Shown piece after piece: positions 22,834-40,026 of a stretch of 60,825 nucleotides of DNA. The translations under genes and the position numbers were made by a program. Within the stretch, counting starts at the first letter, position 1; each line of letters starts with the position of its first letter. The DNA is from a virus (taxonomy: Duplodnaviria; Caudoviricetes): the IMG/VR virus record IMGVR_UViG_3300033142_000461, positions 1-60,825 of that record; one strand, written 5' to 3'. The notes under the pieces were generated by a model. The model made no database searches. It was not told where the DNA came from and saw only the letters and a program-made list of their open reading frames with translations.

Positions 22834-22834
22834 T

Positions 22835-23908: not shown

Positions 23909-23931
23909 GGTCACACGAAAAGGAGAATAAT

Positions 23932-24132
23932 ATGTTGCCTGTATTTGAAAAAGGTTCATTATATCAGAGTTTAACGCACGGTATGGTAGAGTATTTGGGA
24001 ACAGATACATATTATGGCCAGAATACATTGAAGTTTAAATCGATTCAATATAATACAACAGAGTATTGGTTGCCTGAAAGTCTATCATTCCATTTTGGTG
24101 ACACTGATTCTCCTCAATTACTTAATGAGTAG
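23932..24132 (+). CDS. Hypothetical protein
   Basis: AGGAG RBS, downstream of consensus promoter. Confidence 0.6.
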   Translation: MLPVFEKGSLYQSLTHGMVEYLGTDTYYGQNTLKFKSIQYNTTEYWLPESLSFHFGDTDSPQLLNE

Positions 24133-24135
24133 ATT

Positions 24136-24336
24136 ATGATTAATACAGAAATAGTTAAACTTCTTGAGGAAGTAAAGGAAGAGATGTTAAGAGAGATATA
24201 TACTTCTTGTGATGAATGGTATGAACGTTATAATATTGGAATAAAGAAGTCTGTATCCATTATAGATAAAAAGATTGCCTATTACTCAATGACACCTAAC
24301 GATTTAAAGAAAGAACTTGGACTATACCATAACTAA
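24136..24336 (+). CDS. Hypothetical protein
   Basis: TAATG-coupled to gp46. Confidence 0.55.
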   Translation: MINTEIVKLLEEVKEEMLREIYTSCDEWYERYNIGIKKSVSIIDKKIAYYSMTPNDLKKELGLYHN

Positions 24337-26069
24337 TGATCCACTTTAAGATCTTAAAATATAAAAATTTTATGTCGGTTGGTAATACTCCAATCGAATT
24401 ATACCTTGACAGATTCGATAAGACACTACTAACAGGTAAGAACGGCCATGGTAAGTCACAAAACTACATCGCTCTTTACTATGCTCTATATGGTAAGGTG
24501 TTCTCTAAAGGATTAGTTCTTGCTCAAATGATTAACTCCCTCAATCAGAAGAAATTGGTTGTTGAGGTTGAGTTCTCAATCGGCAAAAATGAATACAAAG
24601 TTGTTCGAGGCCTGAAACCAAACATATTTCAGATATGGATTAATGGCACAAAAAAAGAACAAGATGCCAACATCAAGGACTATCAAAAGTTCCTAGAAAC
24701 AAACATTTTGAAGATGACTTCAAAGACTTTCAAACAAATTGTTATTCTTGGTTCTACTGCATACGTTCCCTTTATGCGTCTGTCTGCAAAGGACCGTAGA
24801 GATGTAATCGAGGACCTACTTGATATTCAATACTTCACCATTATGTCAGAACTGGCAAAGAAACGTGTTGTATCAATGCGTGAAGATATTGGTGACCTTA
24901 CATCAAAGATTAATCAACTTGATACAAGGGTTGAGGTTACTGCTTCTAAGATTGAAGAATTAAATGACCATAACGATAATGTTATTGGTAAGAACGAAGA
25001 AGAAATCTCCAAACATTCTGTAGACCTATTGGGTCTTGAAACACAAAAGTCTGACCTCTATGCGAAAACAAAAGAGATTGACTTTGAGGGTTCTAAGGCC
25101 AACCTAGGTAAACTTGTTAAACAAGGAAATGAATTGTCTTCTCTTAAAAGACAAATTCAAACCAATAGAAACAAATCACAAAAAGAGATTGATTTCTTTG
25201 ATGATATAACAGATTGTCCTACCTGTCTACAAAATGTAGAAGACGACCATAAACACCGTATCATATCCCACAACGAGGATAAGATAATCAAGTTTGATAA
25301 TGGTATCGTTAAGGCTGAGGAGAAACTTGGTGAGTTTAACAACGATATAGAAGTTGCACAGTCTATCATTGATTCATTTTCTGATTATGTTTCCCAGATG
25401 AAAACTATCGACCATCGTGTAGAACTTTTAGAAGGTGTTATTGCCAGCATCAAGAAACAGAATATTGAATTATCAGAAACAGTTGATACTTCTGAATCAG
25501 AAAAACAATTAGCGATAGACAAGAAGGAACTTGATGGTATTCGAAAGACAAAGAATGAACTGACTGATGAATTGAGATATTATACTACAGTTATTGAACT
25601 GTTGAAAGATGGTGGTATAAAAACCAAAATCATTAAGAGTTATATTCCTGTCATTAACAAGTATATACAGAAGTACCTAGATATACTTGATTTCAATATT
25701 GAGTTTATTTTCGATGAACAATTTAATGAAACCATAAAGAGTCGTGGTAGAGATATGTTCTCGTATGGTAATTTCAGTGAAGGACAAAAACTGAGAATCG
25801 ATTTGGCAATATTGTTCACCTTTAGAGAGGTGTCGAGACTCAAGAATAGTTCATCAACCAATCTATTGATCTTTGATGAGATTGGAGATAGTTCTCTCGA
25901 CCAAGAAGGATTTGATGCTCTGATGCGTATCTTGAACAGCAGTGCCGAAGACTCTAACATCTTTGTTATCTCTCATAATGATAACATGGGTGAGATGTTT
26001 AAGAATACCGTACGTTTTGAGTTAAAAAATAACTTCACAGAAATGACGTTTGTAGGGGAGTATAAGTGA
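24336..26069 (+). CDS. gp46: Recombination ATPase gp46 (Rad50/SbcC-like)
   Basis: KNFMSVGN, GKNGHGKS, CPTC zinc hook, FSEGQ signature, LIFDE, ISH. Confidence 0.97.
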   Translation: MIHFKILKYKNFMSVGNTPIELYLDRFDKTLLTGKNGHGKSQNYIALYYALYGKVFSKGLVLAQMINSLNQKKLVVEVEFSIGKNEYKVVRGLKPNIFQIWINGTKKEQDANIKDYQKFLETNILKMTSKTFKQIVILGSTAYVPFMRLSAKDRRDVIEDLLDIQYFTIMSELAKKRVVSMREDIGDLTSKINQLDTRVEVTASKIEELNDHNDNVIGKNEEEISKHSVDLLGLETQKSDLYAKTKEIDFEGSKANLGKLVKQGNELSSLKRQIQTNRNKSQKEIDFFDDITDCPTCLQNVEDDHKHRIISHNEDKIIKFDNGIVKAEEKLGEFNNDIEVAQSIIDSFSDYVSQMKTIDHRVELLEGVIASIKKQNIELSETVDTSESEKQLAIDKKELDGIRKTKNELTDELRYYTTVIELLKDGGIKTKIIKSYIPVINKYIQKYLDILDFNIEFIFDEQFNETIKSRGRDMFSYGNFSEGQKLRIDLAILFTFREVSRLKNSSSTNLLIFDEIGDSSLDQEGFDALMRILNSSAEDSNIFVISHNDNMGEMFKNTVRFELKNNFTEMTFVGEYK

Positions 26070-26806
26070 TAAAGTTATATAATGGCGATTGTCTTGACAT
26101 TATGAAGAACATACCAGACAATTCTATTGATATGGTCCTTACCGACCCTCCGTACGGAACTACCGCGTGTAAATGGGATTCTATAATACCATTGGAACCG
26201 ATGTGGGAACAACTTAAACGTATTATTAAAGACAGTGGTGTTATTGTTATGACCGCTTCTCAACCATTTACAACAACACTAATTTCTTCCAATATGGATA
26301 TGTTTAAATATTGTTGGGTTTGGGAAAAGAATTTCTCTACAAACTTTTTACATGCTAAACGTCAGCCTCTAAGAAAAACAGAAGATGTGGTCGTGTGGCA
26401 TCCTGGAACTAGTTTCTATTATCCTATAAAGACAGAAGGACATAAACCGACCCAGAGTGCTAAAGGTAGTTCTAACGGTGTACTATGGCATGGAACAAAT
26501 AAGAGAGACTATAAAGGCGGAGACACAACGAGAATGCCTACAAACATCATAAAGATTGCCGCGGAAGACCCAAAGAACAGAGTGCACCCAACACAAAAAC
26601 CTGTCGCGTTGATGGAATATTTGATCAAGACATATACTCTTGAGGGAGAAACTGTACTTGATTTCACTATGGGATCTGGTACAACAGGAGTCGCATCCAA
26701 GAATCTTGATAGAGATTTTATTGGTATAGAACTCGACCAAGACTATTTCAATATCTCCCAAGACCGTATAGAATCAACTAATCCCCTGGCCGAACTATTC
26801 GCGTAA
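26066..26806 (+). CDS. Orphan amino-DNA methyltransferase (N4-C/N6-A, beta-class motif order)
   Basis: DPPY, HPTQKP, LDFTMGSGTTG, FIGIE. Confidence 0.93.
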   Translation: MIKLYNGDCLDIMKNIPDNSIDMVLTDPPYGTTACKWDSIIPLEPMWEQLKRIIKDSGVIVMTASQPFTTTLISSNMDMFKYCWVWEKNFSTNFLHAKRQPLRKTEDVVVWHPGTSFYYPIKTEGHKPTQSAKGSSNGVLWHGTNKRDYKGGDTTRMPTNIIKIAAEDPKNRVHPTQKPVALMEYLIKTYTLEGETVLDFTMGSGTTGVASKNLDRDFIGIELDQDYFNISQDRIESTNPLAELFA

Positions 26807-26937
26807 CATATTGATTTCTAAGTCATAAACTGGACTTATGCGCCCATAGAAACATTCAGTGCTAAATCAGAAAATAATGGTTGTCATTAGGTGCAATGCC
26901 TGTATAATGATCCATATTGATTGAGAGGAGTTCTAAA
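26804..26937 (+). promoter_or_regulatory. Early promoter cassette copy 1
   Basis: IHF consensus (minus strand, 26804-26816); ATAA-N7-TTAT-N6-ATAG at 26825; TTGTCA-N16-TATAAT. Confidence 0.75.
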
Positions 26938-27327
26938 ATGAGTAAATATGTCGTAATTCACAGTGCCTTTGGTGACTTGTGTGAACCTGTCGCGTTTGTA
27001 ACGGCGACCCACTGTGAACAAGTCTATGAGAAGACCAATACCATTTCTCGCCCTTGGTGGGAGAATGAGGGTGTTGTGAAGGGTGCCAAAGAGGGTTATC
27101 GTTCAACTTCTGTCGATGACATCATAGTACAGTTCACCGATAAGGGCGAACTTGTGAGTGTTAATGTCGTAGACCATACTGGTTACAAAGAGATGCCTGC
27201 TGAGATTGAGGTAATGATTTATGTTGCCGATGGCCACATTCGTTCATTTGTGACTCTTACACGCGAGGCCGTTGAACGTGTCGCAAAAGAATGGTTCAAT
27301 AACTGCAATCACATCGACTTGTCATAA
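26938..27327 (+). CDS. Early hypothetical protein
   Basis: GAGGAG RBS, ATG at 26938; YRSTSVDD motif. Confidence 0.7.
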   Translation: MSKYVVIHSAFGDLCEPVAFVTATHCEQVYEKTNTISRPWWENEGVVKGAKEGYRSTSVDDIIVQFTDKGELVSVNVVDHTGYKEMPAEIEVMIYVADGHIRSFVTLTREAVERVAKEWFNNCNHIDLS

Positions 27328-27451
27328 GTCTGGCTTATATGCTAATAAGCACAATCATTTCAAATACTTACGAAATAGTGCTTTTAGTGGTTGACGGTGG
27401 TACCAATACCTGTATAATGATCCATATTGATTGAGATTGAGAGAGAAAAAG
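27324..27451 (+). promoter_or_regulatory. Early promoter cassette copy 2
   Basis: ATAA-N7-TTAT-N6-ATAA; TTTCAAatacTTA; TTGACG-N16-TATAAT; leader ATTGAGAGAGAA. Confidence 0.8.
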
Positions 27452-29965
27452 ATGTCAAAAATGAATTTAGATTTGCTCGCGACTATCCTTGCTGAGGAGA
27501 ACATTACTGTTACTCGCAAGAATTGTAAGACAGCAAGTTTCGACCTTTTAAATCGTGTTCTTACTATCCCTAACACTAAAGACTTTTTTGAAGACTATGC
27601 ACAGATTGCTATGATTCTTCACGAAGTTGGTCATGCCCTTTATACGGATCTAGATCGTTACATGGAGATTGGTTCTTCAATTCAGAAACGATTCCCACAT
27701 GCTCGTATGTTGTGTAACATTCTTGAAGATGTTCGAATTGAGAAAAAGATTCGTGCGAAGTTTAAGGGTGCTGCGTCTTTCTTATACAAGACTAACAAAG
27801 AACTTTTCGACAATGACTGGTTCGGTACTCCTGAGATGGTTGCTGATTACGGTCTCCTTGATCTGATCAATGTTCACTACAAAGTTGGTCCTATGTCAAC
27901 TATCAAACTTCCTGAGTCAGGTAATGAACTCATCAAGTTAGTTGAAAACATGGACACTATGGATGATCTTGAAGACACTTGTGAAGCGTTTGTTGAACAA
28001 TACGAAAAAGAGAAAGAACAAGAACAACCTCAAGAGCCAATGCGCGCTGAGGATGAAGAGAACGAAGACGACCAGTTAGAAGATGATTCTCAAGATGATG
28101 ATGATTCTGATACAGATGAACCAGAAGAAAATCAATCAATGCCTGATTTTCCTACTGATGATGAAGAAGATGATTCGGATGATTCTGGTGATTCTGTCGA
28201 TGATGATGATTCTGATGAGTGTGAAGACGGTGAATCAGATTCGGATGATTCTGGTGATTCTGTCGATGATGAATCTCCTGATGAGGACGATGATTCGGCA
28301 AAGGTTGATGATTCTGATGCCGAAGACGAAACTACCGATGAAGAGTCTGAACTTGATAAGACCGAAGGTGATAGTGATGATGAGTCTGAGGAAGACGAAC
28401 TTGAAGACGAACACAAGGCTGATGAGTTAAATGATGGCCGTGAAGGTTCGGTTGATATCGGTACTGGCGAGTCTCAAGAATCATACGATGAGAATTTTGA
28501 TGAGGCGATTGACTTTGAAGAAAATTCAAATGAACCGAAACGATTCACTGTTCATACTCGAATTCCTTCTTATAAAGAATTTGTTGCCTCTGGTAACATT
28601 GTAGAATATAAAGATGTTATCAATGCAAACTGGTGTCCTTCTAAAGGTCACCCAGCTCCTACCAAAGAACAAATCGATTCAAATTATAAAATTAGTGATT
28701 ACACTATTACTTATATTAAAGATGAATACAATCGTCTTTCTGAGGCTTTTGTTCCTTTTAAATCTTCACTTAAAAGTACTGTCGCTCAAATGGTTAATGA
28801 ATTTGAACGTTCAAAGACTGCCGATGTTCGTAGTCGTACTAAAGTTCACAAGACTGGTAAGCTTGATGTTACTCGCCTTCACAACCACAAAGTTTCTGAT
28901 AACATTTTCCTGAAACGTGAGACTGTGAAAGAAGGCAAGAATCACGGTATCGTTATGATGATTGATGCTTCTATTTCAATGCGTGACAAAATTCAAGAGA
29001 TGATGAAACAGGTAATCACTACCGCGTTATTTGCTAGAAAGGTTAATATTCCTTTTGAGGCATATACTTTCACTACTCCTGAATTGCCTGTTGAACCTAT
29101 CGATGAAGGTTATGAAGAGATTAGTAAAAAAGGTCTCTATCATATGTCTGGTAATTATGTTCGTGGTAGAGTAGCCCAAGTTCTTTCTTCCGAGATGAAC
29201 AATAAAGATTGGAATGATGCACTGTTTCAACTCTATATGTTTGGTTTCGAAACAAAAGTACTTACTAAAGATGAATTTGCTAACAGTGATTTCTATGAAC
29301 TTGGTGGTACTCCTCTTTATCAAGCATCGATGATGTCTATTTCTATCGTTGAACGTTTTATCGAGAGATACAATGTACAGATTCCATCACTTCTGTTAAT
29401 GACTGACGGTGCTGGTACTAGTCCTAAGATTGGTTACGATTGGAATATTACCGAACATGTTAACTCTTATGATATCATTTCTAGTGTTGTGGACATTGAT
29501 ACTAATAAGACCTACAAGATTTCAGATATTAACAAAGAGATTGTGAAAAGCGACCGATGGGGACACACCCAACGTTATGTTGATACCTTTAGTCGTTATC
29601 ATGTTGCCCTTGAAATTCTTAAGCAACGTGTTCCTGAAATCAACCTGATTGGTTATTTCATTGTTGCTACTAAGAGAGATACACAAGACTTCAAAAAGTG
29701 TTTCAATACTACTACCGAGAAAGTTACAATGGGCAACATCAAGAAAAGCGGTGTTCTCGCTGGTAACGCGATTGGTTATGATGAGATGTTCATCATTTAC
29801 GGCGTTAGTCTTGAAGATGAGTCTGCTGATATTGAAGACCAACTTGAAGGTGTTAAAAAGGGTTCTTACAAATACAAGCAACTCCTTATGCAACAACTCC
29901 AGACTGGAAACTCTTCAAAGAATCTGGTCAAGAAAGTTGTTGAGGTCATTTCAACCGCAGCTTAG
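27452..29965 (+). CDS. VWA-domain protein with N-terminal HExxH domain and acidic linker (CobT-like partner of the AAA ATPase)
   Basis: HEVGH, NILEDVRIE, MIDAS DASISM, GGTPL, MTDG. Confidence 0.85.
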   Translation: MSKMNLDLLATILAEENITVTRKNCKTASFDLLNRVLTIPNTKDFFEDYAQIAMILHEVGHALYTDLDRYMEIGSSIQKRFPHARMLCNILEDVRIEKKIRAKFKGAASFLYKTNKELFDNDWFGTPEMVADYGLLDLINVHYKVGPMSTIKLPESGNELIKLVENMDTMDDLEDTCEAFVEQYEKEKEQEQPQEPMRAEDEENEDDQLEDDSQDDDDSDTDEPEENQSMPDFPTDDEEDDSDDSGDSVDDDDSDECEDGESDSDDSGDSVDDESPDEDDDSAKVDDSDAEDETTDEESELDKTEGDSDDESEEDELEDEHKADELNDGREGSVDIGTGESQESYDENFDEAIDFEENSNEPKRFTVHTRIPSYKEFVASGNIVEYKDVINANWCPSKGHPAPTKEQIDSNYKISDYTITYIKDEYNRLSEAFVPFKSSLKSTVAQMVNEFERSKTADVRSRTKVHKTGKLDVTRLHNHKVSDNIFLKRETVKEGKNHGIVMMIDASISMRDKIQEMMKQVITTALFARKVNIPFEAYTFTTPELPVEPIDEGYEEISKKGLYHMSGNYVRGRVAQVLSSEMNNKDWNDALFQLYMFGFETKVLTKDEFANSDFYELGGTPLYQASMMSISIVERFIERYNVQIPSLLLMTDGAGTSPKIGYDWNITEHVNSYDIISSVVDIDTNKTYKISDINKEIVKSDRWGHTQRYVDTFSRYHVALEILKQRVPEINLIGYFIVATKRDTQDFKKCFNTTTEKVTMGNIKKSGVLAGNAIGYDEMFIIYGVSLEDESADIEDQLEGVKKGSYKYKQLLMQQLQTGNSSKNLVKKVVEVISTAA
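28172..28272 (+). repeat. 35-nt direct repeat (period 66) in the acidic linker
   Basis: GATTCGGATGATTCTGGTGATTCTGTCGATGATGA at 28172 and 28238. Confidence 0.85.
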
Positions 29966-29971
29966 AGGGTC

Positions 29972-30102
29972 ATTAGTTCTGCTTATGACCCAATAAGCAC
30001 AATCATTTCAAATACTTACAAAATAGTTGCGAAAATGGTTGACCGAGGCACCCAGACCTGTATAATGGTACCATAAATTGAGATTGAGAGAGAAAAGAAA
30101 TT
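29972..30102 (+). promoter_or_regulatory. Early promoter cassette copy 3
   Basis: ATTA-N7-TTAT-N6-ATAA; TTTCAAatacTTA; TTGACC-N16-TATAAT; leader ATTGAGAGAGAA. Confidence 0.8.
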
Positions 30103-31332
30103 ATGTCTAAACAAAGAGTTACAGAGCAAGAGTTTGTTGATTTGATCGTCAGCGCTACTGGTCGTACCGATTTTGGTCGTGGTGAGGTTCAACAGTTCGC
30201 TCGCGACAATAACGTTTCACTGCCTTGTATCATTGACCGCGCTGACGGTCCTTACGCTCAGGGCGAGAAGGGACGCCGAAATTTCGGCGATGTAGATAAT
30301 GTTGTCTCTATGCCTGCCGCATCGACTCCTGCGACTCCTGCGACTGTCCCTGCTGCAAATGAGGCGCCTGTACCAGTTGCAGCTGCGAAACCCGCACTTT
30401 CCCTGCGTCAAGCAGAGAATTCTAATAAGATTGTAGTTCCCCACAAAGATCCTCTGTATGTTCCTTTTGGTGAGTATTCAGATATCATCAAAGTGATGCG
30501 CTCAAAACAGTTCTTCCCTATTTTTGTTACTGGTCTATCTGGTAATGGTAAAACTATGGGTATCACCCAAGCGGCCGCAAAACTTAATCGTCCTCTTGTC
30601 CGTGTTAACTTTACTGTTGAGACTGATGAAGACGACCTGATTGGTGGTTTCCGTTTGATTGACGGCGACACTGTGTTTGTCTATGGTCCTGTGATTGAGG
30701 CGATGAAACAAGGCGCTATCTGTGTTCTTGATGAGGTCGACCTTGGCGGTGACGCTGTGATGTGTATGCAATCAATCATGGAAGGTTCTGGTTACTACAT
30801 CAAAAAGACCGGCGAGTATATCGAACCTAAAGAAGGTTTCAATATCATCGCTACCGCGAACACCAAGGGTCAAGGCGACTCGACAGGTAAGTTTGTCAAT
30901 GCTCGTGTTATGAATGAGGCATTCCTTGAACGTTTCCCACTGTGGATTGAACAAGAATATCCTTCAAAGTCTGTAGAAAAGAAGATTCTTGGTAACGTGC
31001 TCAAGTCTAAAATGACTCCAACTACCGAGTCAACTGATTTTATCGACTCGCTTGTTACTTGGGCAGATAGTATTCGTACTGCTTTCTTCGCTGAAGGTTC
31101 TGATATGGACGATGTTATCACTACTCGCCGTCTTGTAATGATTATCACTGCTTACACCATCTTTAATGATAAACTCAAGTCAGTTCAGAAAGCTGTGAAT
31201 CGTTTCGATAGTGATGTTGCCGAGACAATGATGAATTGGTACAAAATTGCTTCTGATGATGTTGAGAGTGCTACTGTTCCAGATGAAGATGCTGGTGACA
31301 ATGGCGAACCATGGAAATCTCCTAACTTCTAA
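30103..31332 (+). CDS. MoxR/CobS-like AAA+ ATPase
   Basis: GLSGNGKT, ETDEDDLIGG, LDEVD, ATANTKG, NEAFLERF, TRRL. Confidence 0.92.
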   Translation: MSKQRVTEQEFVDLIVSATGRTDFGRGEVQQFARDNNVSLPCIIDRADGPYAQGEKGRRNFGDVDNVVSMPAASTPATPATVPAANEAPVPVAAAKPALSLRQAENSNKIVVPHKDPLYVPFGEYSDIIKVMRSKQFFPIFVTGLSGNGKTMGITQAAAKLNRPLVRVNFTVETDEDDLIGGFRLIDGDTVFVYGPVIEAMKQGAICVLDEVDLGGDAVMCMQSIMEGSGYYIKKTGEYIEPKEGFNIIATANTKGQGDSTGKFVNARVMNEAFLERFPLWIEQEYPSKSVEKKILGNVLKSKMTPTTESTDFIDSLVTWADSIRTAFFAEGSDMDDVITTRRLVMIITAYTIFNDKLKSVQKAVNRFDSDVAETMMNWYKIASDDVESATVPDEDAGDNGEPWKSPNF

Positions 31333-31381
31333 ATAACATAGACACGGTCCTTACCCTCTCTCTCTCAATTAGGGCCGTGTC
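31329..31381 (+). ncRNA. Candidate late antisense hairpin RNA 1
   Basis: CTAAATA, then 11-bp stem GACACGGTCCT/AGGGCCGTGTC with loop containing CTCTCTCTCTCAATT. Confidence 0.55.
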
Positions 31382-31426
31382 GATAATTTAAACAAATGAG
31401 AGAACAACAAAGGAAATATAGATAGT

Positions 31427-31657
31427 ATGAAAATTGAAGTGAATGAAAATGGTTATTGGTTGGGATTTTGGTTTATTATGTTGACCGCGTTTCTCGGTAC
31501 AATCGGATATGGAACATCATATTGGAAAGATTACAATACAAAGATGGTCACGATGATTGTTGAGAATGGAGTTGACCCAATCGCTGCTAATTGTGCAATG
31601 CAAGATGATTATGGAGATAATCCTTCTTGTATCATTATCGCCAACAAAGCTAAATAA
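31427..31657 (+). CDS. Small membrane-anchored protein
   Basis: One TM segment; AAGGA RBS-like element upstream. Confidence 0.6.
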   Translation: MKIEVNENGYWLGFWFIMLTAFLGTIGYGTSYWKDYNTKMVTMIVENGVDPIAANCAMQDDYGDNPSCIIIANKAK

Positions 31658-31767
31658 AAACACTGTCAACCTTGTGACATCTCTCTCAATTTAAAGCAAG
31701 GTTGACCAACGGGGTCCTTCGGGACCTCGCAGTTTCTAAAGAGAAGACTTCGGTCTTCTCTTTTTTT
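31650..31767 (+). ncRNA. Candidate late antisense sRNA 2 with own terminator
   Basis: CTAAATA; 10-bp stem GTCAACCTTG/CAAGGTTGAC with loop containing CTCTCTCAATTT; UUCG hairpin 31710-31729; terminator. Confidence 0.6.
31738..31767 (+). terminator. Rho-independent terminator
   Basis: AAAGAGAAGAC-TTCG-GTCTTCTCTTTTTTT. Confidence 0.9.
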
Positions 31768-31789
31768 ATATGATACCGTATAAAATGTA

Positions 31790-31818
31790 TTGACACCGAC
31801 ATCAATATAGGTTATACT
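31790..31818 (+). promoter_or_regulatory. Sigma70 promoter for the clamp/clamp-loader operon
   Basis: TTGACA-N17-TATACT. Confidence 0.8.
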
Positions 31819-31851
31819 GGTTAAACAATTTTACATAATGAAGGATAAAAT

Positions 31852-32547
31852 ATGAACCTAAGTAAAGATACAGTAGCGATTTTAAAGAACTTCGCAGCAA
31901 TCAACGGGAACTTTTTCTCTCCTGGTGACACCAAAGAGATTAAGACCTGGACAATCAAGAAGAACATTTTCGCTAAGGCCAATCTTGACGAAGCAATTCC
32001 ATCCGAGTTACCCATCTATGACCTCAATGAGTTACTATCTGTTGTGGACTTCTACAAAGACGGGGCAAACACTCTAATCGACCTCAAAGATACCTATGCG
32101 GTAATCTCTGACGGCGGCACCAGCAAAATCAAATACGCATATACCGAGAAAGAATTACTTTCGTATCCTGACAAAGACCTTGTTATCGATGATTACAATG
32201 TATCATTCGACCTGACCAAAGATGACATCTCTGGTATCATGAAGGCTGCATCTGTACTTGGCGCACCTGATATTCAAATCAAAAACAATGATGGTTCAAT
32301 CGATGTTATTGTTTACGACAAGAAAGTTCCGAACGGTTCAACTTATGAAATGAATCTTGGTGATGTTGATGCTGGCTTTCAGTTTGAGTTGCAGTTGAAG
32401 ATTGAGAACTTGAAGATTATGACTGACAAGGATTATACTCTTTCTATTGCCGACGGCAAACCTCTTATCTTCCTTAAATCTAAGGACGATGTTATCGAAT
32501 ATTTCATTGCTATTGAAAGGGATTCTGTACTCGGTTCTGGAGAGTAA
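31852..32547 (+). CDS. gp45: Sliding clamp gp45
   Basis: LSKDT.AILKNFAAIN, IYDLNELL, YFIAIE. Confidence 0.95.
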   Translation: MNLSKDTVAILKNFAAINGNFFSPGDTKEIKTWTIKKNIFAKANLDEAIPSELPIYDLNELLSVVDFYKDGANTLIDLKDTYAVISDGGTSKIKYAYTEKELLSYPDKDLVIDDYNVSFDLTKDDISGIMKAASVLGAPDIQIKNNDGSIDVIVYDKKVPNGSTYEMNLGDVDAGFQFELQLKIENLKIMTDKDYTLSIADGKPLIFLKSKDDVIEYFIAIERDSVLGSGE

Positions 32548-32550
32548 TAC

Positions 32551-33510
32551 GTGAAAGAAATCAATGAAAAGCATAAAATATGGATTGAGAAATATCGTCC
32601 AAATTCCATTGATGATGTTATACTTCCTGAATCTCAAAAGACGATGTTCAGGAAGTTCGTTGAAGACGGAGACTTCCCTAATCTATTATTGTCTGGCGGT
32701 CCTGGTACCGGTAAGACAACCATGGCCAAGGCGATGTGTAATGAGTTAGGATGGGACTACATCATTCTCAACGGTTCTGAGTCGAGCGAATCGGGTATCG
32801 ATGCCATACGAAACATGGTGGTGCCATTCGCTACATCTATGTCGCTTGATAATCCAAACTCAATGAAGGTCATCATCATCGATGAGGCCGACTATCTGAA
32901 TCCACAGTTTGTACAACCTGCGCTTAGAAACATCTTTGATAATCTTATGGGTTCAGCCAGATTCATTCTGACTTGTAACTACCCACACAAGATTATTGCA
33001 CCTCTTCGCGAATCTCGTTTAACCAATATCGAGTTTAAAGTTGGTGCAAAAGATGCTCCATTAATGATGGCGCAGTTGATGAAACGTGTTCAATTCATTT
33101 TGAAGAATGAGAATGTTGAATTTGATAACGGTGTTATTGCTGAGTTTATCAAACGAAACTTTCCAGACAACAGAAAGATTATCAACGACCTTCAACGATT
33201 CTCCACTACTGGTGAAATTGGTAGTTCAATCTTTAATGAAACCTCGGAGACATATGACGACCTTATTAGTTACTTGAAAGGTAATCAGTTTGGAGATATG
33301 CGAAAGTGGGTGTCTGAGAATTCACCTGATTTGACCGAACTGAATCGTTACATCTATATGAAAGGTGTCTCTATTATGGAACCGTCTTCGGTACCACAGT
33401 CGATTCTTATCATGAATGAATACTCATACAAGTCTGCCTTTGTTGCTGACCAAGAAATCAATACTGTTGCAATGTTGACAGAGATAATGTCTAACGTGGT
33501 GTGGAAATAA
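32551..33510 (+). CDS. gp44: Clamp loader ATPase subunit gp44
   Basis: WIEKYRP, GPGTGKTT, IIDEADYL, FILTCN. Confidence 0.97.
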   Translation: MKEINEKHKIWIEKYRPNSIDDVILPESQKTMFRKFVEDGDFPNLLLSGGPGTGKTTMAKAMCNELGWDYIILNGSESSESGIDAIRNMVVPFATSMSLDNPNSMKVIIIDEADYLNPQFVQPALRNIFDNLMGSARFILTCNYPHKIIAPLRESRLTNIEFKVGAKDAPLMMAQLMKRVQFILKNENVEFDNGVIAEFIKRNFPDNRKIINDLQRFSTTGEIGSSIFNETSETYDDLISYLKGNQFGDMRKWVSENSPDLTELNRYIYMKGVSIMEPSSVPQSILIMNEYSYKSAFVADQEINTVAMLTEIMSNVVWK

Positions 33511-33511
33511 T

Positions 33512-33847
33512 ATGAACGAATATAAACTTATAACCGATGATTTATTATTGGTAAATAAAATACTTTCAGAATCGGAAGGATTGAATGTATATTTTATGAA
33601 TGGTCCTGTTTGTCTGTCTGTTGATAATAAACCGATAGCGGCACAGACAATATTAATTCCTATATTAGAAGAACAGAATAATAATGAATTTATAACTGAA
33701 CAAATAATTGATGTTATTCACAAAGTTCTTGATGGTGATGATGTTAATTCTATCTATCTGTATTCTTATCAAACGATGTGTCATTTCAATACCGGTGATG
33801 CCGAGGTAAATTGCGGACTAAAGTTGAGATTTGGTATTGATGATTGA
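33512..33847 (+). CDS. Hypothetical protein
   Basis: AT-rich ORF inserted between gp44 and gp62. Confidence 0.5.
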   Translation: MNEYKLITDDLLLVNKILSESEGLNVYFMNGPVCLSVDNKPIAAQTILIPILEEQNNNEFITEQIIDVIHKVLDGDDVNSIYLYSYQTMCHFNTGDAEVNCGLKLRFGIDD

Positions 33848-34334
33848 ATTCGACCTGTTTGGTGATGAGATTGTAGAGGAAGAAACATTCGATGAAGAAG
33901 AATGGGCCGAAAACTACAAGAAACTACAAAAGAACAAATACTCACCATTTGATTTTGGTAATGACCTGTCATTCACCAAGAGAAACATCTTAGAGAGTGA
34001 GGGTTATTCGGAAGAGTGTGTAAAGAATCTAAAGAATAATCTCTTTATGATTAACCGTATATTCTCCCAATACCCAGACACAATTCTATGGGCAAATGAG
34101 ATGAATCAGGCTGGCGCCATTGACCCTATCGCTTTATACAACTTCTACTTCTATGGTATCAAAAGGAAGAAGAGGTTCGCTAAGTGGGGCAAACCTAAGA
34201 AACAGGAGAACATTGATGTTGTGATGGAGTTTCTTGGTTACTCAAGGCGCGCTGCTAGTATGGTAGTTGACTTGTACACAAAGGAAGACATTAAAGATAT
34301 GAAAAAACGACTGGACAAAGGTGGTAAAAAGTAA
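33840..34334 (+). CDS. gp62: Clamp loader small subunit gp62
   Basis: FMINR.FS...DTI..ANEMN, KRFAKW, GYS, KGG. Confidence 0.92.
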   Translation: MIEFDLFGDEIVEEETFDEEEWAENYKKLQKNKYSPFDFGNDLSFTKRNILESEGYSEECVKNLKNNLFMINRIFSQYPDTILWANEMNQAGAIDPIALYNFYFYGIKRKKRFAKWGKPKKQENIDVVMEFLGYSRRAASMVVDLYTKEDIKDMKKRLDKGGKK

Positions 34335-34370
34335 CATTTAATAAATAAGTTCCATATTATAATAACAAAA

Positions 34371-34811
34371 ATGATGGAACTTAATATGAATGGTAATATT
34401 CTTGAACAAGATGAATTTGTAGACTGGAACATTGATATGATGTTAGAGGTCTCCCTTCAAAAGGAAGACGACTTCTTAAAGATTATGGAAACACTAACCA
34501 GAATCGGCATACCAAACAACAGAACAAAGTCTCTATACCAATCCTGTCATATATTACATAAACGTGGTCGTTATTTTATTGTCCACTTCAAAGAGTTATA
34601 TGCCCTTGATTATCCTCAAGGCGAACATACCATCTCTGTTGAAGACATTGGACGAAGAACTACCATAGCACGTATGTTAAATGAATGGGGACTATTAAAG
34701 ATTGAAAATAGTCTCGACAACCACGACAGAACCAGATATAATGTCAAAGTAGTAAAATATTCTGACAAGAAGAACTGGGACCTAAAGCCGAAATATACGA
34801 TAGGTTCTTAA
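34371..34811 (+). CDS. regA: Translational repressor RegA
   Basis: DDFLKIMETLTRIGI, LYQSCHILHKRGRYFIVHFKEL, W.L.PKYTIG. Confidence 0.96.
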   Translation: MMELNMNGNILEQDEFVDWNIDMMLEVSLQKEDDFLKIMETLTRIGIPNNRTKSLYQSCHILHKRGRYFIVHFKELYALDYPQGEHTISVEDIGRRTTIARMLNEWGLLKIENSLDNHDRTRYNVKVVKYSDKKNWDLKPKYTIGS

Positions 34812-34841
34812 TTATGAAATAACTTGAGGCAAAACTATATA

Positions 34842-35375
34842 ATGAATAACACTGAATACTTGGAACAATCTGCTCGTACCGCGGCATCGTCACTACACCG
34901 CATCTTTGATGACCAGACTATTATTGGTACTCTTGAGAATGCTGTGAAGTATGGCCAAGAGGTTGACAAAATCAAGAAAGGTCTGTATTACGGAAAACAT
35001 TGTAACATCTCCACCGGAGATGATGGTACTGTACTTAATAATTCTATCGTTGATAACGTAGACATTGATATTCTACACGGCGTTCTTGGTGTCTTCACCG
35101 AGTCGGTAGAAATGATCGAAGCAGTACTCAAGACAATGGAACATCCACCAACACACGAAATGTATCAGAAGATGGACGATGTGAACATGGTCGAAGAGAT
35201 TGGTGATATGGAATGGTATCTCGCAATGTTGTATCGTTCACTTGAAACATATCCAGAAGTCGCAAAACAAATCAACATCGACAAACTCCGCGCAAGATAC
35301 CCCGGCAAGTTCACTACAGAAGACGCTATTAACCGAGACACCGATACCGAACGTACCATCTTAGAGAACGGATAA
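34842..35375 (+). CDS. MazG-like all-alpha NTP pyrophosphohydrolase
   Basis: LHGVLG..TE..E, EEIGD..WY, NIDKLRARYP. Confidence 0.85.
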   Translation: MNNTEYLEQSARTAASSLHRIFDDQTIIGTLENAVKYGQEVDKIKKGLYYGKHCNISTGDDGTVLNNSIVDNVDIDILHGVLGVFTESVEMIEAVLKTMEHPPTHEMYQKMDDVNMVEEIGDMEWYLAMLYRSLETYPEVAKQINIDKLRARYPGKFTTEDAINRDTDTERTILENG

Positions 35376-35698
35376 TGAGTTGGACATACATAGCAAGTCC
35401 TTACAGTCATGATGATGACGATATTGTTCTGTCAAGATTTAAAGCGGTAGAGAAGTTCACAGCAAAATGTTTGAGAAATAGACAATTTGTATATTCTCCG
35501 ATTGTACATTGTCATGAAATTGCCGCTGACGAAGAGTTGCCAAAAGATTTTGAATTTTGGGGTGGATATAATCGCGCAATGTTAGCGACCGCTTCTAAGA
35601 TGATTGTGTTGTGTCTTGATGGTTGGAAAGAAAGTGTTGGTGTGCAAGGCGAAATTGAATTTGCTGAACTATGTGGTATTGAAATAGAATATGTATGA
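35375..35698 (+). CDS. DUF1937-like protein (nucleoside deoxyribosyltransferase-like fold)
   Basis: YIASPYS, SPIVHCH, GWKESVGVQGEI. Confidence 0.75.
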   Translation: MSWTYIASPYSHDDDDIVLSRFKAVEKFTAKCLRNRQFVYSPIVHCHEIAADEELPKDFEFWGGYNRAMLATASKMIVLCLDGWKESVGVQGEIEFAELCGIEIEYV

Positions 35699-35972
35699 AC
35701 AATCAAAACTTGAATCAACTATAGAGACTTCTCTAAACATTGGTTCAGGTTTTATACTTGCTTATTCAACATGGTTATTCGTAATCATTCCATTGATAGA
35801 AAAAGGTTATCTTTCTATAGATGACTCCCTTATCATCACAAGTATCTTTACCGTTATAACATTTGTTCGTAGTTATTTCTGGAGAAGAATGTTCACAACC
35901 AAAAAGATTCATCTTATCGCTGAGTGGTTACAGGCCGAGTGGTACTATTTTAAAAAAGGAGGTTTTAAATGA
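35691..35972 (+). CDS. Small membrane protein
   Basis: QS.LES..E...NIGSG...RSYFWRRMF; two TM segments. Confidence 0.7.
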   Translation: MYEQSKLESTIETSLNIGSGFILAYSTWLFVIIPLIEKGYLSIDDSLIITSIFTVITFVRSYFWRRMFTTKKIHLIAEWLQAEWYYFKKGGFK

Positions 35973-36226
35973 ACGAATTACCAATTTTAGATTTGATAGG
36001 TTGGGTTGGATTTGCTGGCCTTGGATTGTTTTACTGGTTAGTAGGTTCTGGCAAAGTATTACAAGCATACATCTACGGAACAATCGGTGCCTTGGCATGG
36101 TTAGTTGTAGGCATTGCAACCCAATTTGGATATGCGTCAGAACTTCCATCTTTGATTACAATGGAGATTATGGTAGTGCTTATGAATATACGCGGTATTA
36201 TTAATTGGAGAAAAAGTTCAAAATGA
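35969..36226 (+). CDS. Small three-TM membrane protein
   Basis: Hydrophobic; C-terminal NIRGIINW. Confidence 0.65.
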   Translation: MNELPILDLIGWVGFAGLGLFYWLVGSGKVLQAYIYGTIGALAWLVVGIATQFGYASELPSLITMEIMVVLMNIRGIINWRKSSK

Positions 36227-36792
36227 AAGTAGTTGGAATATCTGGCAAAGCCAGAAGCGGAAAAGATACTGTCGCTGATTTGTTAATGGCAAAATATGCC
36301 GAACAGAGCGGCATCACTCACAAGTATTCATTTGCAGACCCAATAAAAAAGGCTTGTTCAGAATTGTTTGGTATCAATATTCAAATGTTCTATAGTGGTA
36401 ATAGAGAACTAATTTTACCAGAACACGGACTATCTATTCGTCAAATCATGCAACGATTCGGCACAGAATGTATGCGTGGTCATTTTGGTGAAGATTTTTG
36501 GATTAAGAAAGCGGAGTGTGAGTTCGAACGCATTAAAGAAATTTCTGAGAATGAACAATACGCACCGGTGAGTCTGATTGTTATACCAGATGTTCGATAC
36601 TGTAACGAGGCAGACTTGATACGTAAATACGGCACCATTATACACGTTGATAGAGATGATGTACCAGACGAAGTAGGAGACACAGGACATACCTCTGAGG
36701 TTGGTATTGCAAGACACATGGACGATATTATGATTGATAACAACGGAACTCTTGAGGATCTGATTGAGAAAGTGTATGATCTGGATCTATGA
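36223..36792 (+). CDS. Deoxynucleoside monophosphate kinase (T4 gp1-like)
   Basis: GISGKARSGKDT, FADPIK, RQIMQRFGTE, DVRY.NEA, H.SE, NNGT. Confidence 0.93.
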   Translation: MKVVGISGKARSGKDTVADLLMAKYAEQSGITHKYSFADPIKKACSELFGINIQMFYSGNRELILPEHGLSIRQIMQRFGTECMRGHFGEDFWIKKAECEFERIKEISENEQYAPVSLIVIPDVRYCNEADLIRKYGTIIHVDRDDVPDEVGDTGHTSEVGIARHMDDIMIDNNGTLEDLIEKVYDLDL

Positions 36793-37364
36793 ATTTAGAA
36801 ACGTACAAAATACATTGGTGCAGATTTTCAGATTATCACAAATTTTGTGACCAACTTGCTTTTTATGGTGGTTGTTACGGATTAGTATTTAATGAAAATA
36901 TGCCCGAATCATATCAATATCCTTATGAATTTGAGGAGTGTGTATATATAGGTGAATCAGCTGGACATTATATTGATAAACAACATGGTCATAATCAAAG
37001 ACCTAGAAGCCATATACATAAAAGGATGACCCAGCACCATAAACCACTAACAACTGGTGACAACGGTTCCGAATCGCATAATCGTATTATTGAAATGTAT
37101 GGTTATGGAGAAGATATGTTAAATGGAACATTAACAGATAAACCTTTATGGTTAGCATTAATTGTTCCTAATCCAGATTGGCATCAAGACGGATTTATGA
37201 AGACGTGGGTTATGTATGAAGAGTCTCGCCAAATCGCCGAATATATTATGAAGTGGGGCAAGACTCCTTTAGGAAATCTTGACAGAGATTCTAATAAAGA
37301 TCCATATAGTTATAGTTCACAAGAGTTATTACTTAATCAAAGTTTAGAAGAACTGTTTGTATAA
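36789..37364 (+). CDS. Hypothetical protein, possibly divergent GIY-YIG-like, with C-terminal clamp-binding-like motif
   Basis: GCYGL...VYIGES...KRM..H; ends SLEELFV. Confidence 0.45.
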   Translation: MNLETYKIHWCRFSDYHKFCDQLAFYGGCYGLVFNENMPESYQYPYEFEECVYIGESAGHYIDKQHGHNQRPRSHIHKRMTQHHKPLTTGDNGSESHNRIIEMYGYGEDMLNGTLTDKPLWLALIVPNPDWHQDGFMKTWVMYEESRQIAEYIMKWGKTPLGNLDRDSNKDPYSYSSQELLLNQSLEELFV

Positions 37365-37367
37365 GTC

Positions 37368-37397
37368 TTGACCTACACCCAACCGATGGTATATAAT
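37368..37397 (+). promoter_or_regulatory. Sigma70 promoter for gp43
   Basis: TTGACC-N18-TATAAT. Confidence 0.65.
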
Positions 37398-37428
37398 GTA
37401 CCATCGGTTTAAATTATGAGAACAATAA

Positions 37429-40026
37429 ATGAGTAGATTTTACTTAAATGTAAAAAGATATGGTCGCAATCTCCTAGTTAGAGAATATAACAACGGAGAG
37501 GTTATAAATTACAAGCATCCATATAAACCAACACTGTATGTAGAGACAGACAAACCATCCGAGTACAAAGGATTCTTAGGCGAGAATGTCGCGCCTGTTG
37601 ATTTTGGTTCTATGTCTGATGCCACTGACTTTGTGAAATCGTACAAAGATGTTCCTGGTTACCGTATTCACGGACAACAGGACTATGTACTACAATACCT
37701 TGCTGAAGAATATCCTGATGAAATTGAATTCGACTCTTCAAAGATTCGTGTAGCTAATGTCGATATCGAAACCGCCTCTGAGGGTGGATTCCCTTACGCT
37801 GACGAGGCGAACTATGAAGTAAACGCCATCACTCTATATGATAACATTGATGACACCTACTACGTGTGGGGTCTTGGTGAGTGGCAACTAAAAGATACTG
37901 AACTAGATTTTATTACCTACGACAATGTTGAGTATGTCCATTGTAAAGATGAAGCAGACCTATTCATTCGTTTCATCAACCATTTCCATACCAAACAGTA
38001 TGTGGTGTTCACAGGTTGGAACATTAACAACTTCGATATACCATACATCATTAATCGTGGTCGTAAGATCGTTGGTGAAAAGATTGTAAACAAATTATCT
38101 CCTTGGGGAATCATCCAAGAGAAGAACAGCAAAGGCAAGTTTGGTAAAGAGACCATCACTTACGACATCTACGGTGTATCGATACTTGATTACATCGAAC
38201 TGTACCAATACTACTCTCGCGCCACATTAGATTCATATTCACTTGACTCTGTAGCGAACCATGAACTTGGTGAGAAGAAACTGGACTATAGTGACCTTGG
38301 TTCTATTCACACAATCTACAAGACCAACTTCCAAACATGGATAGACTATAACATCAAAGACGTTAGACTTGTACAAAGAATTGAAGAGAAGAATAAATTC
38401 ATAGAACTGGTATACAGTCTATCATACTATCCAAAGATTAACCACAATGATGTGTTTGCAACTGTAAAAACTTGGGACTCTATCATTCATTATACTCTAC
38501 TTGAGAGAAACATTATCGTTCCTCCTAAAGAGTACTATCATAAAGAATCATTTGGTGGAGGTTATGTAAAAGAACCTATACCTAATATCTATGATTGGTT
38601 GGTCTCTGTCGATTTGAATTCCCTATATCCTCACCTGTTGATTCAGTATAACATTTCACCAGAAACATTAATTACCTCTGATGATTTGCCACAAGAAATC
38701 AAGGCACTTATCGCATCAATCAAATTTATGAATGATGAAAAAGGTAACAAGATGATGCCTATGGAGATTCTCAACAAAGAGAAGAACATAGACCTGTTGA
38801 AAGAGTACAACATTTCAATGGCTGCCAACGGCGCATGTTATCGTAGAGACAAGAAAGGATTGTTCCCAGAACTTATGGAGAGTTTATACAAAGTTCGTAA
38901 GGCAGACAAGAAAGAGATGCTTCGTTGGGAATCTATCCTTGAGGCAGGCGATAAGACAGATGCAGAGTTTGTCAAAAATTGTAAGGCGAACATTTCAAAG
39001 TTCAACAACAACCAATTGGCAAAGAAGGTACTGCTGAACTCTCTTTATGGTGCCCTTGGTGCACCGTACTTTAGATATTTCAATATTCAAAATGCCGAGG
39101 CAGTTACCCTATCAGGACAATTATCAACCAGATGGGCTGGCGATAGACTGAACATTTTCTTTAATGAGATATTGAAGACCGAAGGTAAAGATTATATCGT
39201 GGCAGCGGACACAGATAGTCTATACATCACACTCAATGAACTTGTGAAGACCGCATTTAAGAACAACGATGATGAAATTAAAATTGTCGATGCGCTTGAT
39301 GGCTTTATGAAAAAGATTGTTGAACCAAAGATTTCAAATATCTATGATGAACTTGCTGACTATATGAACGCATATGAAAACAAGATGGTAATGGAAAGAG
39401 AAGTTATTGCCTCTAAGGGATTCTGGACTGGCAAGAAACGATACGCTTTGAATGTATGGGACTCTGAGGGTGTTCGTTATGAGAAACCAAAGATGAAGTA
39501 CATGGGACTATCTGCGAAATCTTCTGCTACAAATACATTCAGCAGGCCAAAACTTGTAGAGTTATATAAATTGGTAATGGAGTCCGATAATAAAACTATT
39601 ATCAAGTACATTGAGGAGTTTAACAAAGAGTGGAATAATATATCTATTGATGACATTGCAATACCAAAAGGAATCAATGGCGTTAAGAAATACTCTGACC
39701 AGAACGGTATGCCGATTAAGGGCGCACCGAAACATGTTAAGTCTGCCCTTGCTCACAATAGACTCATTAAAAAACTTGGACTAAATACCATTGAACCTAT
39801 CTCTGATGGCGACAAGATTAAGTTTATCGAGTTGAAATCTCCCAACCCTATAGGTTCAGAGGTGATTGGATTTAAGAATCACTTACCTGATGAGTTTGAC
39901 CTTGAACAATATATTAATCGTGATTTGATGTTTGAAAAAGGGTTTCTTGACCCCGCTCGAACTGTTCTCGACCCACTGAATTTGAAACACAAAGAAGAAG
40001 CTACACTTGAAGACCTATTTGGATAA
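37429..40026 (+). CDS. gp43: Family B DNA polymerase gp43 (uninterrupted)
   Basis: DIET exo I, DLNSLYP, K..LNSLYG, DTDS, KKRY; ends TLEDLFG. Confidence 0.98.
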   Translation: MSRFYLNVKRYGRNLLVREYNNGEVINYKHPYKPTLYVETDKPSEYKGFLGENVAPVDFGSMSDATDFVKSYKDVPGYRIHGQQDYVLQYLAEEYPDEIEFDSSKIRVANVDIETASEGGFPYADEANYEVNAITLYDNIDDTYYVWGLGEWQLKDTELDFITYDNVEYVHCKDEADLFIRFINHFHTKQYVVFTGWNINNFDIPYIINRGRKIVGEKIVNKLSPWGIIQEKNSKGKFGKETITYDIYGVSILDYIELYQYYSRATLDSYSLDSVANHELGEKKLDYSDLGSIHTIYKTNFQTWIDYNIKDVRLVQRIEEKNKFIELVYSLSYYPKINHNDVFATVKTWDSIIHYTLLERNIIVPPKEYYHKESFGGGYVKEPIPNIYDWLVSVDLNSLYPHLLIQYNISPETLITSDDLPQEIKALIASIKFMNDEKGNKMMPMEILNKEKNIDLLKEYNISMAANGACYRRDKKGLFPELMESLYKVRKADKKEMLRWESILEAGDKTDAEFVKNCKANISKFNNNQLAKKVLLNSLYGALGAPYFRYFNIQNAEAVTLSGQLSTRWAGDRLNIFFNEILKTEGKDYIVAADTDSLYITLNELVKTAFKNNDDEIKIVDALDGFMKKIVEPKISNIYDELADYMNAYENKMVMEREVIASKGFWTGKKRYALNVWDSEGVRYEKPKMKYMGLSAKSSATNTFSRPKLVELYKLVMESDNKTIIKYIEEFNKEWNNISIDDIAIPKGINGVKKYSDQNGMPIKGAPKHVKSALAHNRLIKKLGLNTIEPISDGDKIKFIELKSPNPIGSEVIGFKNHLPDEFDLEQYINRDLMFEKGFLDPARTVLDPLNLKHKEEATLEDLFG

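Follow-up and report, generated by a model that had tools for sequence, protein, structure and literature searches.

What are two hairpins that share one loop sequence doing at the end of a unit of early genes in a T4-like phage? The question arises in IMG/VR record IMGVR_UViG_3300033142_000461, analyzed over its whole length of 60,825 bases (here called the window; estimated completeness, 34%), which derives from an uncultured T4-like myovirus whose genes were identified by PHROG matches. The hairpins, designated H1 and H2, lie downstream of the gene for a CobS-like AAA+ ATPase (cobS, 30103 to 31332; phrog_249, PF07728) and display in large loops a CU tract complementary to the GA-tract ribosome-binding sites of early genes. 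The H1/H2 element is a conserved, so far undescribed RNA motif of a group of uncultured T4-like phages, and it might act to damp the translation of the genes whose leaders it matches. The structures at the locus are the following (nt, nucleotides).

31341 to 31381, + strand: hairpin H1, an 11-bp stem (10 Watson-Crick pairs plus 1 G-U) and a 19-nt loop (31352 to 31370) with the CU tract and CAATT
31665 to 31706, + strand: hairpin H2, 10 Watson-Crick pairs plus a closing U-G, with a 20-nt loop (31676 to 31695)
31710 to 31729, + strand: stable 8-bp hairpin with a UUCG tetraloop
31738 to 31770, + strand: intrinsic terminator, an 11-bp stem (31738 to 31763) with a UUCG loop, followed by a T-run

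The initial annotation had described two hairpins with unrelated stems, and the sequence and folds bear this out: among 200 shuffled sequences each, none was as stable as H1 (−19.1 kcal/mol, z −4.9) or H2 (−15.2 kcal/mol, z −4.2). The UUCG hairpin (−14.6 kcal/mol) and strong terminator (−14.7 kcal/mol) that it had placed after H2 were likewise found, again with 0 of 200 shuffles as stable. The minus-strand folds are weaker or less exceptional (H1, −15.4 kcal/mol, z −2.3; H2, −15.2 kcal/mol, z −2.6); together with the G-U pairs, this lower stability points to a sense-strand RNA. The common loop sequence is the 12-mer TCTCTCTCAATT, one base longer than first written. CTCTCTCAATT occurs exactly three times in the window, in both loops (+ strand) and at 42881 to 42891 (− strand); allowing up to one mismatch, there are six matches compared to 2.1 expected, a number reached by 2 of 100 shuffles. 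All four overlapping starts of CTCTCTC on the + strand fall inside the two loops. Two other roles for the hairpins were considered and rejected, namely, stimulation of stop-codon read-through or frameshifting, as the frame past the cobS stop closes after three codons, and an RNase III site, as the stems are too short.

Where does the complement of the loops lie? Eight promoter/leader cassettes in the window combine TTGAC-N16-TGTATAAT with the leader ATAAATTGAG(A)TTGAGAGAGAAA-ATG (at 26901, 27411, 30059, 41762, 42856, 52138, 56403, and 57526).

26881 to 26916, + strand: cassette 1, promoter/leader cassette
27391 to 27451, + strand: cassette 2, sigma-70-like promoter TTGACG-N16-TATAAT and GA-tract ribosome-binding site before the gene for an 837-amino-acid protein
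30039 to 30102, + strand: cassette 3, promoter and leader of cobS
41742 to 41800, + strand: cassette 4, promoter and leader with GGAGAGAGA, a partial 8-nt complement
42836 to 42896, + strand: cassette 5, with the exact 12-nt complement of the shared loop 12-mer at 42881 to 42892
52118 to 52173, + strand: cassette 6, promoter/leader cassette
56383 to 56437, + strand: cassette 7, with 10 nt complementary to the loops at 56427 to 56436
57506 to 57568, + strand: cassette 8, with an 11-nt (GA)n tract complementary to the H1 loop at 57554 to 57564

The loop complement that had been claimed at the ribosome-binding sites of early genes was found in five of the eight cassettes, with lengths of 10 to 12 nt. 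These are also the only five sites in the window with at least 10 contiguous bases complementary to H1 (27436 to 27446, 30083 to 30093, 42881 to 42892, 56427 to 56436, and 57554 to 57564), each 1 to 9 nt ahead of a start codon, compared to a mean of 0.94 and a maximum of 10 with shuffled-loop controls for H1 (means of 0.9 to 1.3 for shuffled loops overall). The sites of cassettes 2 and 3 are complementary to both loops over 11 nt, and in cassette 3 a further 10 nt (30074 to 30083) are complementary to the 3′ side of the H2 loop. GAGAGAG has eight starts on the + strand, seven in cassette leaders and one (21292) outside. The window leaders are nearly unstructured (−0.4 to −6.8 kcal/mol); the RNAcofold ΔΔG values of −1 to −13 kcal/mol, with loop-to-strand pairing modeled with stem opening, are indicative only.

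Some further features of the cassettes are recorded here as such. The cassette 5 leader (42869 to 42899) can fold on itself with eight A-U-rich pairs (−4.0 kcal/mol), in which the start codon would be part of the stem and the GA tract part of a 15-nt loop, which makes a contact between this loop and that of H1 or H2 conceivable. The eight cassettes are nearly identical and resemble mobile regulatory cassettes of the PeSL type. GGTACC is present in several of them, both in the spacer and just past the −10 box, and related cassettes with canonical GAGGAG or AAGGAG ribosome-binding sites occur in other IMG/VR phages.

Is the hairpin peculiar to this phage? Named phages gave zero megablast matches to 30000 to 33000, and in a protein search CobS showed below 60% identity to all 503 matching phage records; a single-protein CobS scan found no close relatives of the locus in IMG/VR and one distant match in the JGI metagenomes. 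More distant loci were informative. An alignment-based CobS scan yielded 80 of them (42 to 55% identity), and in 8 a long GC-rich hairpin follows cobS, with CobS identities of the hairpin-bearing T4-like relatives to the window of 43 to 50% and loops reading CCTCTCTCACTCTCTCTCAATT or, in the L093-95 lineage, CCTCTCTCTCAATT. When IMG/VR was scanned in an unbiased way for the double-tract loop, 24 loci were retrieved, 20 of which carry the same loop on differing GC-rich stems. In 18 of the 24, the order, derived from cobS loci, is cobS, DUF3310, a small hairpin, the CU-loop hairpin, a T-run, TATAAATA, a GAGAG box, a gene with a GGAGAGAA site, and gp45; in two, the hairpin follows a gene for a DnaB-like helicase, and the remaining four are CT-rich stretches without a hairpin.

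The stems are completely different between lineages and fold unaided at −17 to −30 kcal/mol. Since MAFFT alignments left the stems out of register, the structural alignment was taken from a covariance model, seeded with two members and rebuilt from nine distinct members (model R2). In the resulting nine-member alignment, which was fitted to the model and thus favors pairing, 88 of 88 cells pair, 9 of the 10 base pairs are changed on both sides, and 32 cells are compensatory. The covariation score was reached by none of 500 shuffles, and slid controls pair in 29 to 44% of cells. The family was defined by a stem of at least 10 bp and a loop of 19 to 26 nt whose CU tract ends in CAA(UU). Model R2 matched H1 over its full length (45.8 bits, E value 4e-9 to 5e-10), the only hairpin that it found in the window, and detected one copy in the complete 165.6-kb genome G007; at an E value below 0.1 there was none in the complete genome G001 and none in G002. 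No Rfam 15 family matched the window locus or five relative loci, the only match at an E value of up to 1 being the unrelated Ocean-VII (17.4 bits versus a cutoff of 53.5). Seven or eight T residues occupy the 10 nt after the hairpin in 8 of 9 relative lineages (4 after H1 and 1 after H2); because this T-run follows directly, the hairpin of these eight is itself what terminates the early unit. The CU-loop hairpin has a small companion, GC rich and very stable and in many cases with a UNCG-like tetraloop, which lies before it in the relatives and after H2 in the window (31710 to 31729).

The distribution has clear boundaries. G001 and G005 (CobS identity, 46 to 48%) lack the hairpin, the gp45 synteny, and the GA-tract cobS leader, and gp45 relatives (33 to 35% identity) are not syntenic. 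G002, which belongs to the same clade and is 77 kb long as recorded, carries some ten cassettes whose ribosome-binding sites are (GA)n; its cobS region is missing, and there are zero loop copies in the 77 kb. In Melnitz, the nearest named phage, DUF3310 is followed directly by gp45 with no hairpin between them. A scan with the H1-type loop 14-mer gave at least 117 matches, and among the 80 inspected, 4 were in weak AT-rich stems and none was family-like.

Has the pairing partner been conserved together with the hairpin? In 8 of 8 relative lineages, as in the window, a sigma-70-like promoter precedes the first gene of the unit, and the GA-tract leader of this gene shows complementarity to the loop. 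The longest perfect loop/leader complements across lineages span 8 to 14 nt, with duplex energies of −18.7 to −22.7 kcal/mol, as follows.

L076: longest contiguous complement, 14 nt
L115: longest contiguous complement, 12 nt
L093: longest contiguous complement, 11 nt, with a different flank (leader GAGAGAGGTCA, loop TGACCTCTCTC)
Window (own unit): longest contiguous complement, 11 nt
G012, helicase unit: longest contiguous complement, 10 nt
G007, G008, and G011: longest contiguous complement, 9 nt each
L106: longest contiguous complement, 8 nt

The DnaB-like helicase unit of G012 thus shows the same loop/leader pairing in an independent gene context. Some leaders in G007 and G008 read GAGAGTGAG, with GUG opposite CAC in the middle of the loop. 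Of the 78 cobS loci whose 5′ end is complete and whose downstream sequence reaches at least 700 nt, those with a GA-tract ribosome-binding site had the hairpin in 9 of 19 cases and those without one in 0 of 59; hairpin calls in L047, L048, and L085 proved to be 7-nt CT runs in coding sequence and were removed from the counts. What we observe at these loci is a set of structures, their conservation with covarying stems, their complementarity to the leaders, and their position in the unit.

That position bears on when the hairpins would be made. In the region 21000 to 40900, terminator-like sites on the + strand are found only at 21313, 21909, 31013, 31738, and 36003, and the site at 31013 is a weak match (6 pairs) within cobS. 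The strong terminator at 31738 is thus the next one after cassettes 1 to 3, which places H1 and H2 in the 3′ part of an early unit with the order cassette 1, cassette 2 and the 837-amino-acid protein gene, cassette 3 and cobS, H1, ORF76 (a small open reading frame), H2, and terminator. The 11-nt complements at 27436 and 30083 belong to this same unit, and since the hairpins lie inside it, making them would need no late promoter. A sigma-70-like promoter for gp45 (31790 to 31818) follows the terminator.

Late-promoter-like motifs are nonetheless present at the locus, as the following features indicate.

31329 to 31335, + strand: CTAAATA, late-promoter-like motif 5 nt before H1, overlapping the cobS stop codon TAA (31330 to 31332)
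31650 to 31656, + strand: CTAAATA, second copy, 8 nt before H2, overlapping the ORF76 stop codon TAA (31655 to 31657)
31397 to 31404, + strand: GA box TGAGAGAA, 15 nt past H1, with 7 nt complementary to the H1 loop
31427 to 31657, + strand: ORF76, a small predicted protein between H1 and H2 without a PHROG or Pfam family

The initial annotation had placed CTAAATA 5 to 8 nt ahead of the hairpins and before the major head gene, where it was indeed located (16650 to 16656). According to the available part of PMC1524935, phage Aeh1 has a late-promoter variant that reads CTAAATA with its first base at −12, and this spacing would predict transcription to begin at 31341, where H1 itself begins, and at 31662, three bases ahead of H2. 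Among the relatives, TAAATA was found within 45 nt upstream of the hairpin in none of nine lineages; in seven of the nine it is located 9 to 12 nt after the hairpin and is followed by GAGAG at +16 to +22. The GA box at 31397 to 31404 occupies the position of this post-hairpin box. Because H1 keeps the GA box (at +17) but has neither the T-run nor a downstream TAAATA, the arrangement in the window appears to be derived. Judged by this comparison, the conserved feature is the tail of an early unit and not a late small RNA gene, and the "late" part in this phage may be a lineage-specific addition.

Two observations on the GA boxes may be added. A 9-codon upstream open reading frame (31396 to 31425; ATG AGA GAA ... 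TAG) overlaps the box after H1 and stops one base before the ORF76 ATG, an arrangement that may permit termination-reinitiation coupling. In L128 (~436 to 470), L132, L127, L129, L131, L135, and L140, the TATAAATA late promoter is followed immediately by the GAGAG box, which would there sit in the melted region of the promoter and be mostly absent from the late transcript.

How, then, might the element work? The explanation that we prefer, and to which we would give an even chance, is that of an operon-terminal anti-Shine-Dalgarno loop that would be made with the early transcripts, pair with the GA-tract leaders, and damp their translation, either in cis or in the form of a stable 3′ fragment, with possible late re-expression in this phage. 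The CU tract of the large loop (CUCUCUC...CAAUU) would mirror the GA-tract Shine-Dalgarno leader AAUUGAGAGAG, and its targets would be the leaders of the unit's own first genes and those of further early genes with cassettes. Transcribed at the 3′ end of early mRNAs from the sigma-70 cassette promoters, the element would base pair through its unpaired loop with an unstructured GA-tract leader and cover the ribosome-binding site, and initiation on leader-bearing early mRNAs would be lowered. Such pairing could be intramolecular, as in the icaR mRNA considered below, or could occur in trans, on all leader-bearing early mRNAs, via a nuclease-resistant 3′ fragment outliving the body of the mRNA; the latter comes near the idea of the initial annotation but requires no late promoter. 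In the phage of the window, the element is present in duplicate, its own T-run lost, with a separate terminator downstream, and the 3′ part (~105 nt, comprising H2, the UUCG hairpin, and the terminator) would perhaps also be made late via CTAAATA. Pairing in vivo, repression, and timing are what we infer from the sequences. A more far-reaching version, which we put forward only tentatively and consider doubtful, is that a private GA-tract leader tags a set of early genes and that the CU-loop RNA from the end of the cobS operon, accumulating as a stable 3′ fragment and boosted late in this phage, would switch the whole regulon off in trans. The trans-acting late small RNA of the initial annotation, thought to block the early regulon, survives in part: the loops are antisense to the GA-tract leader and are kept in the relatives, and its late promoter is not.

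Several points weigh against the anti-Shine-Dalgarno explanation. Both the CU and the GA tracts are low-complexity sequence, and in G007 the five sites with at least 10 complementary bases (three at ribosome-binding sites) do not exceed the number obtained with shuffled loops (mean, 3.2; maximum, 17); a sliding duplex scan of G007 that included stem bases besides the loop was unspecific. Covariation of loop and leader in relatives, which had been suggested as a check, did not emerge: both are conserved, the lineages' own loop/leader pairs are no longer than cross pairs, and there is no lineage-specific covariation. The association of hairpin and GA-tract site is not independent, because the loci are related and partly duplicated. 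Eight lineages (10 loci) with a GAGAGAG site at cobS, i.e., L046, L047/48, L049, L057/59, L058, L060, L066, and L078, have no CU-loop, anti-site hairpin within ~2.4 kb downstream; the GA-tract site, being present in many hairpin-less distant phages, would be older or more widespread than the hairpin. H2 matched model R2 in its loop core only (11.7 bits, E value 1.2), as did the L093 type (13.6 bits), and for this reason both are taken as single-tract variants. A helix of 11 to 14 bp within a closed loop of 19 to 23 nt would impose topological strain. Finally, no RNA run in the sequencing-run search contained the stretch; one DNA run with 5% of its words covers only short conserved parts of cobS and leaves the hairpins uncovered.

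Alternative explanations differ in the transcript that would carry the loop. Separate late-promoter transcripts with H1 and H2 as their 5′ hairpins, a ~430-nt ORF76 mRNA and a ~105-nt small RNA, could shut the early regulon off in trans. The placement of CTAAATA ahead of both hairpins and of the major head gene would fit, as would the Aeh1-like spacing, the gp55-type late sigma factor encoded in the window, and the strand bias of TAAATA (38 on the + strand versus 12 on the − strand), which precedes many late genes, often at or just after stop codons. The predicted small RNA (31662 to 31769) also forms three clean hairpins, leaving the loop free and ending in a U-tail (−44.5 kcal/mol). We nevertheless regard this as unlikely, given that CTAAATA is not enriched in the window (8 copies versus 12.8 expected), that the two motifs overlap TAA stops in AT-rich spacers and so may be incidental, that seven of nine relative lineages have the late promoter after the hairpin and none has TAAATA before it, and that the hairpins belong to the early unit anyway. 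It is quite unlikely, too, that the element acts locally in cis, the loop pairing with the GA box 15 to 22 nt downstream, as a pseudoknot or long-range helix in read-through transcripts, and controlling the next gene (ORF76 here, a late gene for a 111-amino-acid protein in the relatives). The seven lineages with GAGAG after the hairpin do have a TATAAATA-type late promoter between loop and GA box and a downstream gene with a GGAGAGAA site, which is exactly the layout of the masked ribosome-binding sites of T4 e, soc, 49, and I-TevI as given in the available part of PMC3014915. However, H2 and the L093 and G012 lineages have no downstream GA box, the box in the window is not the ORF76 ribosome-binding site, and, as the late-promoter-like motif of the window precedes H1, the loop would be present in both classes of transcript; moreover, the CAAUU of the loop is left unexplained and is mismatched to the relatives' GA box.

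Two further alternatives would make the complementarity incidental or vestigial. The CU loop could be a recognition site for a protein or enzyme on a hairpin that stabilizes the 3′ end, bound, for example, by a pyrimidine-binding host factor or a phage RNA-binding protein. Conservation of the loop without lineage-specific leader covariation would be expected in such a case, the lineages that keep a GA-tract site without a hairpin are compatible with it, and a RegA-type translational repressor is encoded in the window. That the hairpin occurs only with a GA-tract leader, that the complementarity extends beyond the low-complexity tract (AAUUG/CAAUU, GUG/CAC, and GGUCA/UGACC), and that there is no known candidate protein make it decidedly improbable. 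As to the origin of the loops in chance or in debris of inverted cassettes, this is unlikely because the same loop, on unrelated covarying stems, is kept in distant relatives, where early leaders carry its complement. Nonfunctional inverted-cassette remnants, the alternative that the initial annotation had feared, or DNA-level inverted repeats for recombination have a probability that we consider close to negligible. The minus strand of the H2 loop does resemble a leader with one repeat unit missing (TAAATTGAGAGAGA), and the cassettes resemble the recombinogenic PeSL elements (PMC4122927, available part); against this, cassette similarity ends at the loop borders, the stems covary and stay paired across distant phages, the G-U pairs favor a sense-strand RNA, and in the relatives the element is single copy and keeps its position.

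The remaining content of the window is that of a T4-like genome, with nearly all genes on the + strand. It encodes neck, sheath, tube, portal, prohead protease, scaffold, and major head proteins; uvsY, a uvsW-like helicase, the gp55 late sigma factor, and gp46/47; and, for replication and regulation, the sliding clamp gp45 (31852 to 32547), the clamp loader, RegA, and DNA polymerase. The 837-amino-acid protein behind cassette 2 (ATG at 27452) is phrog_459 and has no Pfam family. The sole sizeable minus-strand gene is a homing/HNH endonuclease-like open reading frame (18077 to 18718) flanked by the major head gene and a second tube-like gene (18824 to 19285). An NAD salvage pair, a cytidyltransferase/NUDIX fusion and a nicotinamide phosphoribosyltransferase, is encoded at 48191 to 49186 and 49477 to 50859, and MazG, PhoH, a dNMP kinase, and a ClpP-like protease are encoded elsewhere.

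In T4, early gene expression is shut off by proteins, RegB cutting GGAG ribosome-binding sites and RegA repressing translation. If correct, control by the CU loop would add an RNA layer to this shutoff and provide a phage case of the anti-Shine-Dalgarno control between 5′ and 3′ untranslated regions (UTRs) that is so far known for single bacterial genes such as icaR; the regulon-wide switch in trans, if true, would be the first trans-acting riboregulator of the T4-type early-to-late program and an RNA counterpart of RegB and RegA. The element is small, portable, and sequence defined (a ~25-nt leader and a ~45-nt hairpin), so direct reporter testing is possible even though the phages are uncultured, and it is a potential compact part for translational control. 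The hairpin could also help annotators recognize where early units end in phages of this group.

Precedents for RNA pairing with ribosome-binding sites include the C-rich loops of Staphylococcus aureus RNAIII, small RNAs derived from 3′ UTRs, and the c4 antisense RNA of phages P1 and P7. Like the CU-loop hairpin, these have pyrimidine-rich loops, are cut from or cotranscribed with an mRNA, and end in a terminator with a U-tail; unlike it, they have loops of 6 to 9 nt (19 to 23 nt here), and there is no sequence or structural homology and no known chaperone dependence. For T4 itself, no trans-acting regulatory RNA had been characterized as of 2010, and the ribosome-binding sites of genes e, soc, 49, and I-TevI are masked in early transcripts, as stated in the available part of PMC3014915. 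Masking in T4 and the pairing considered here would have in common the sequestration of a ribosome-binding site by RNA-RNA contact, with a late promoter between loop and GA box in seven of nine relatives. The T4 structures are, however, local hairpins that silence late genes early (PMC3014915, available part), whereas here the main complement is located 1.2 to 4.3 kb upstream at early genes and the pairing strand would be a hairpin loop; in the window, moreover, the layout of T4 gene e is not found, since TAAATA precedes the hairpins and ORF76 has a ribosome-binding site other than the GA box. The window resembles PeSL elements in its repeated cassettes with an early promoter next to stem-loops and terminators, one such composite being made up of H2, the terminator, and the gp45 promoter. 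The PeSL stem-loops are short and of the terminator type, with no conserved loop or stated leader complementarity in the available part of PMC4122927, and, in contrast to them, the CU-loop hairpin is present in single or double copy and not dispersed.

The literature search for a phage terminator-loop or anti-Shine-Dalgarno element, which covered papers outside their supplements, found none besides icaR. In the icaR mRNA of S. aureus, a pyrimidine-rich motif of the 3′ UTR pairs with the mRNA's own Shine-Dalgarno region and blocks initiation, so that, as in the phage unit, the 5′ target and the 3′ anti-site lie within one unit (PMC3868564, available part). That system involves a single bacterial gene, a UCCCCUG motif, and RNase III cleavage (PMC3868564, available part), and the present one a phage operon, in which the motif sits in a large loop on a terminator or terminal hairpin, is conserved across a phage group, and would match several early leaders. 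Anti-Shine-Dalgarno pairing is, hence, already known; what would be new are the large-loop terminal hairpin, its conservation among T4-like phages, and its apparent link to a private GA-tract leader.

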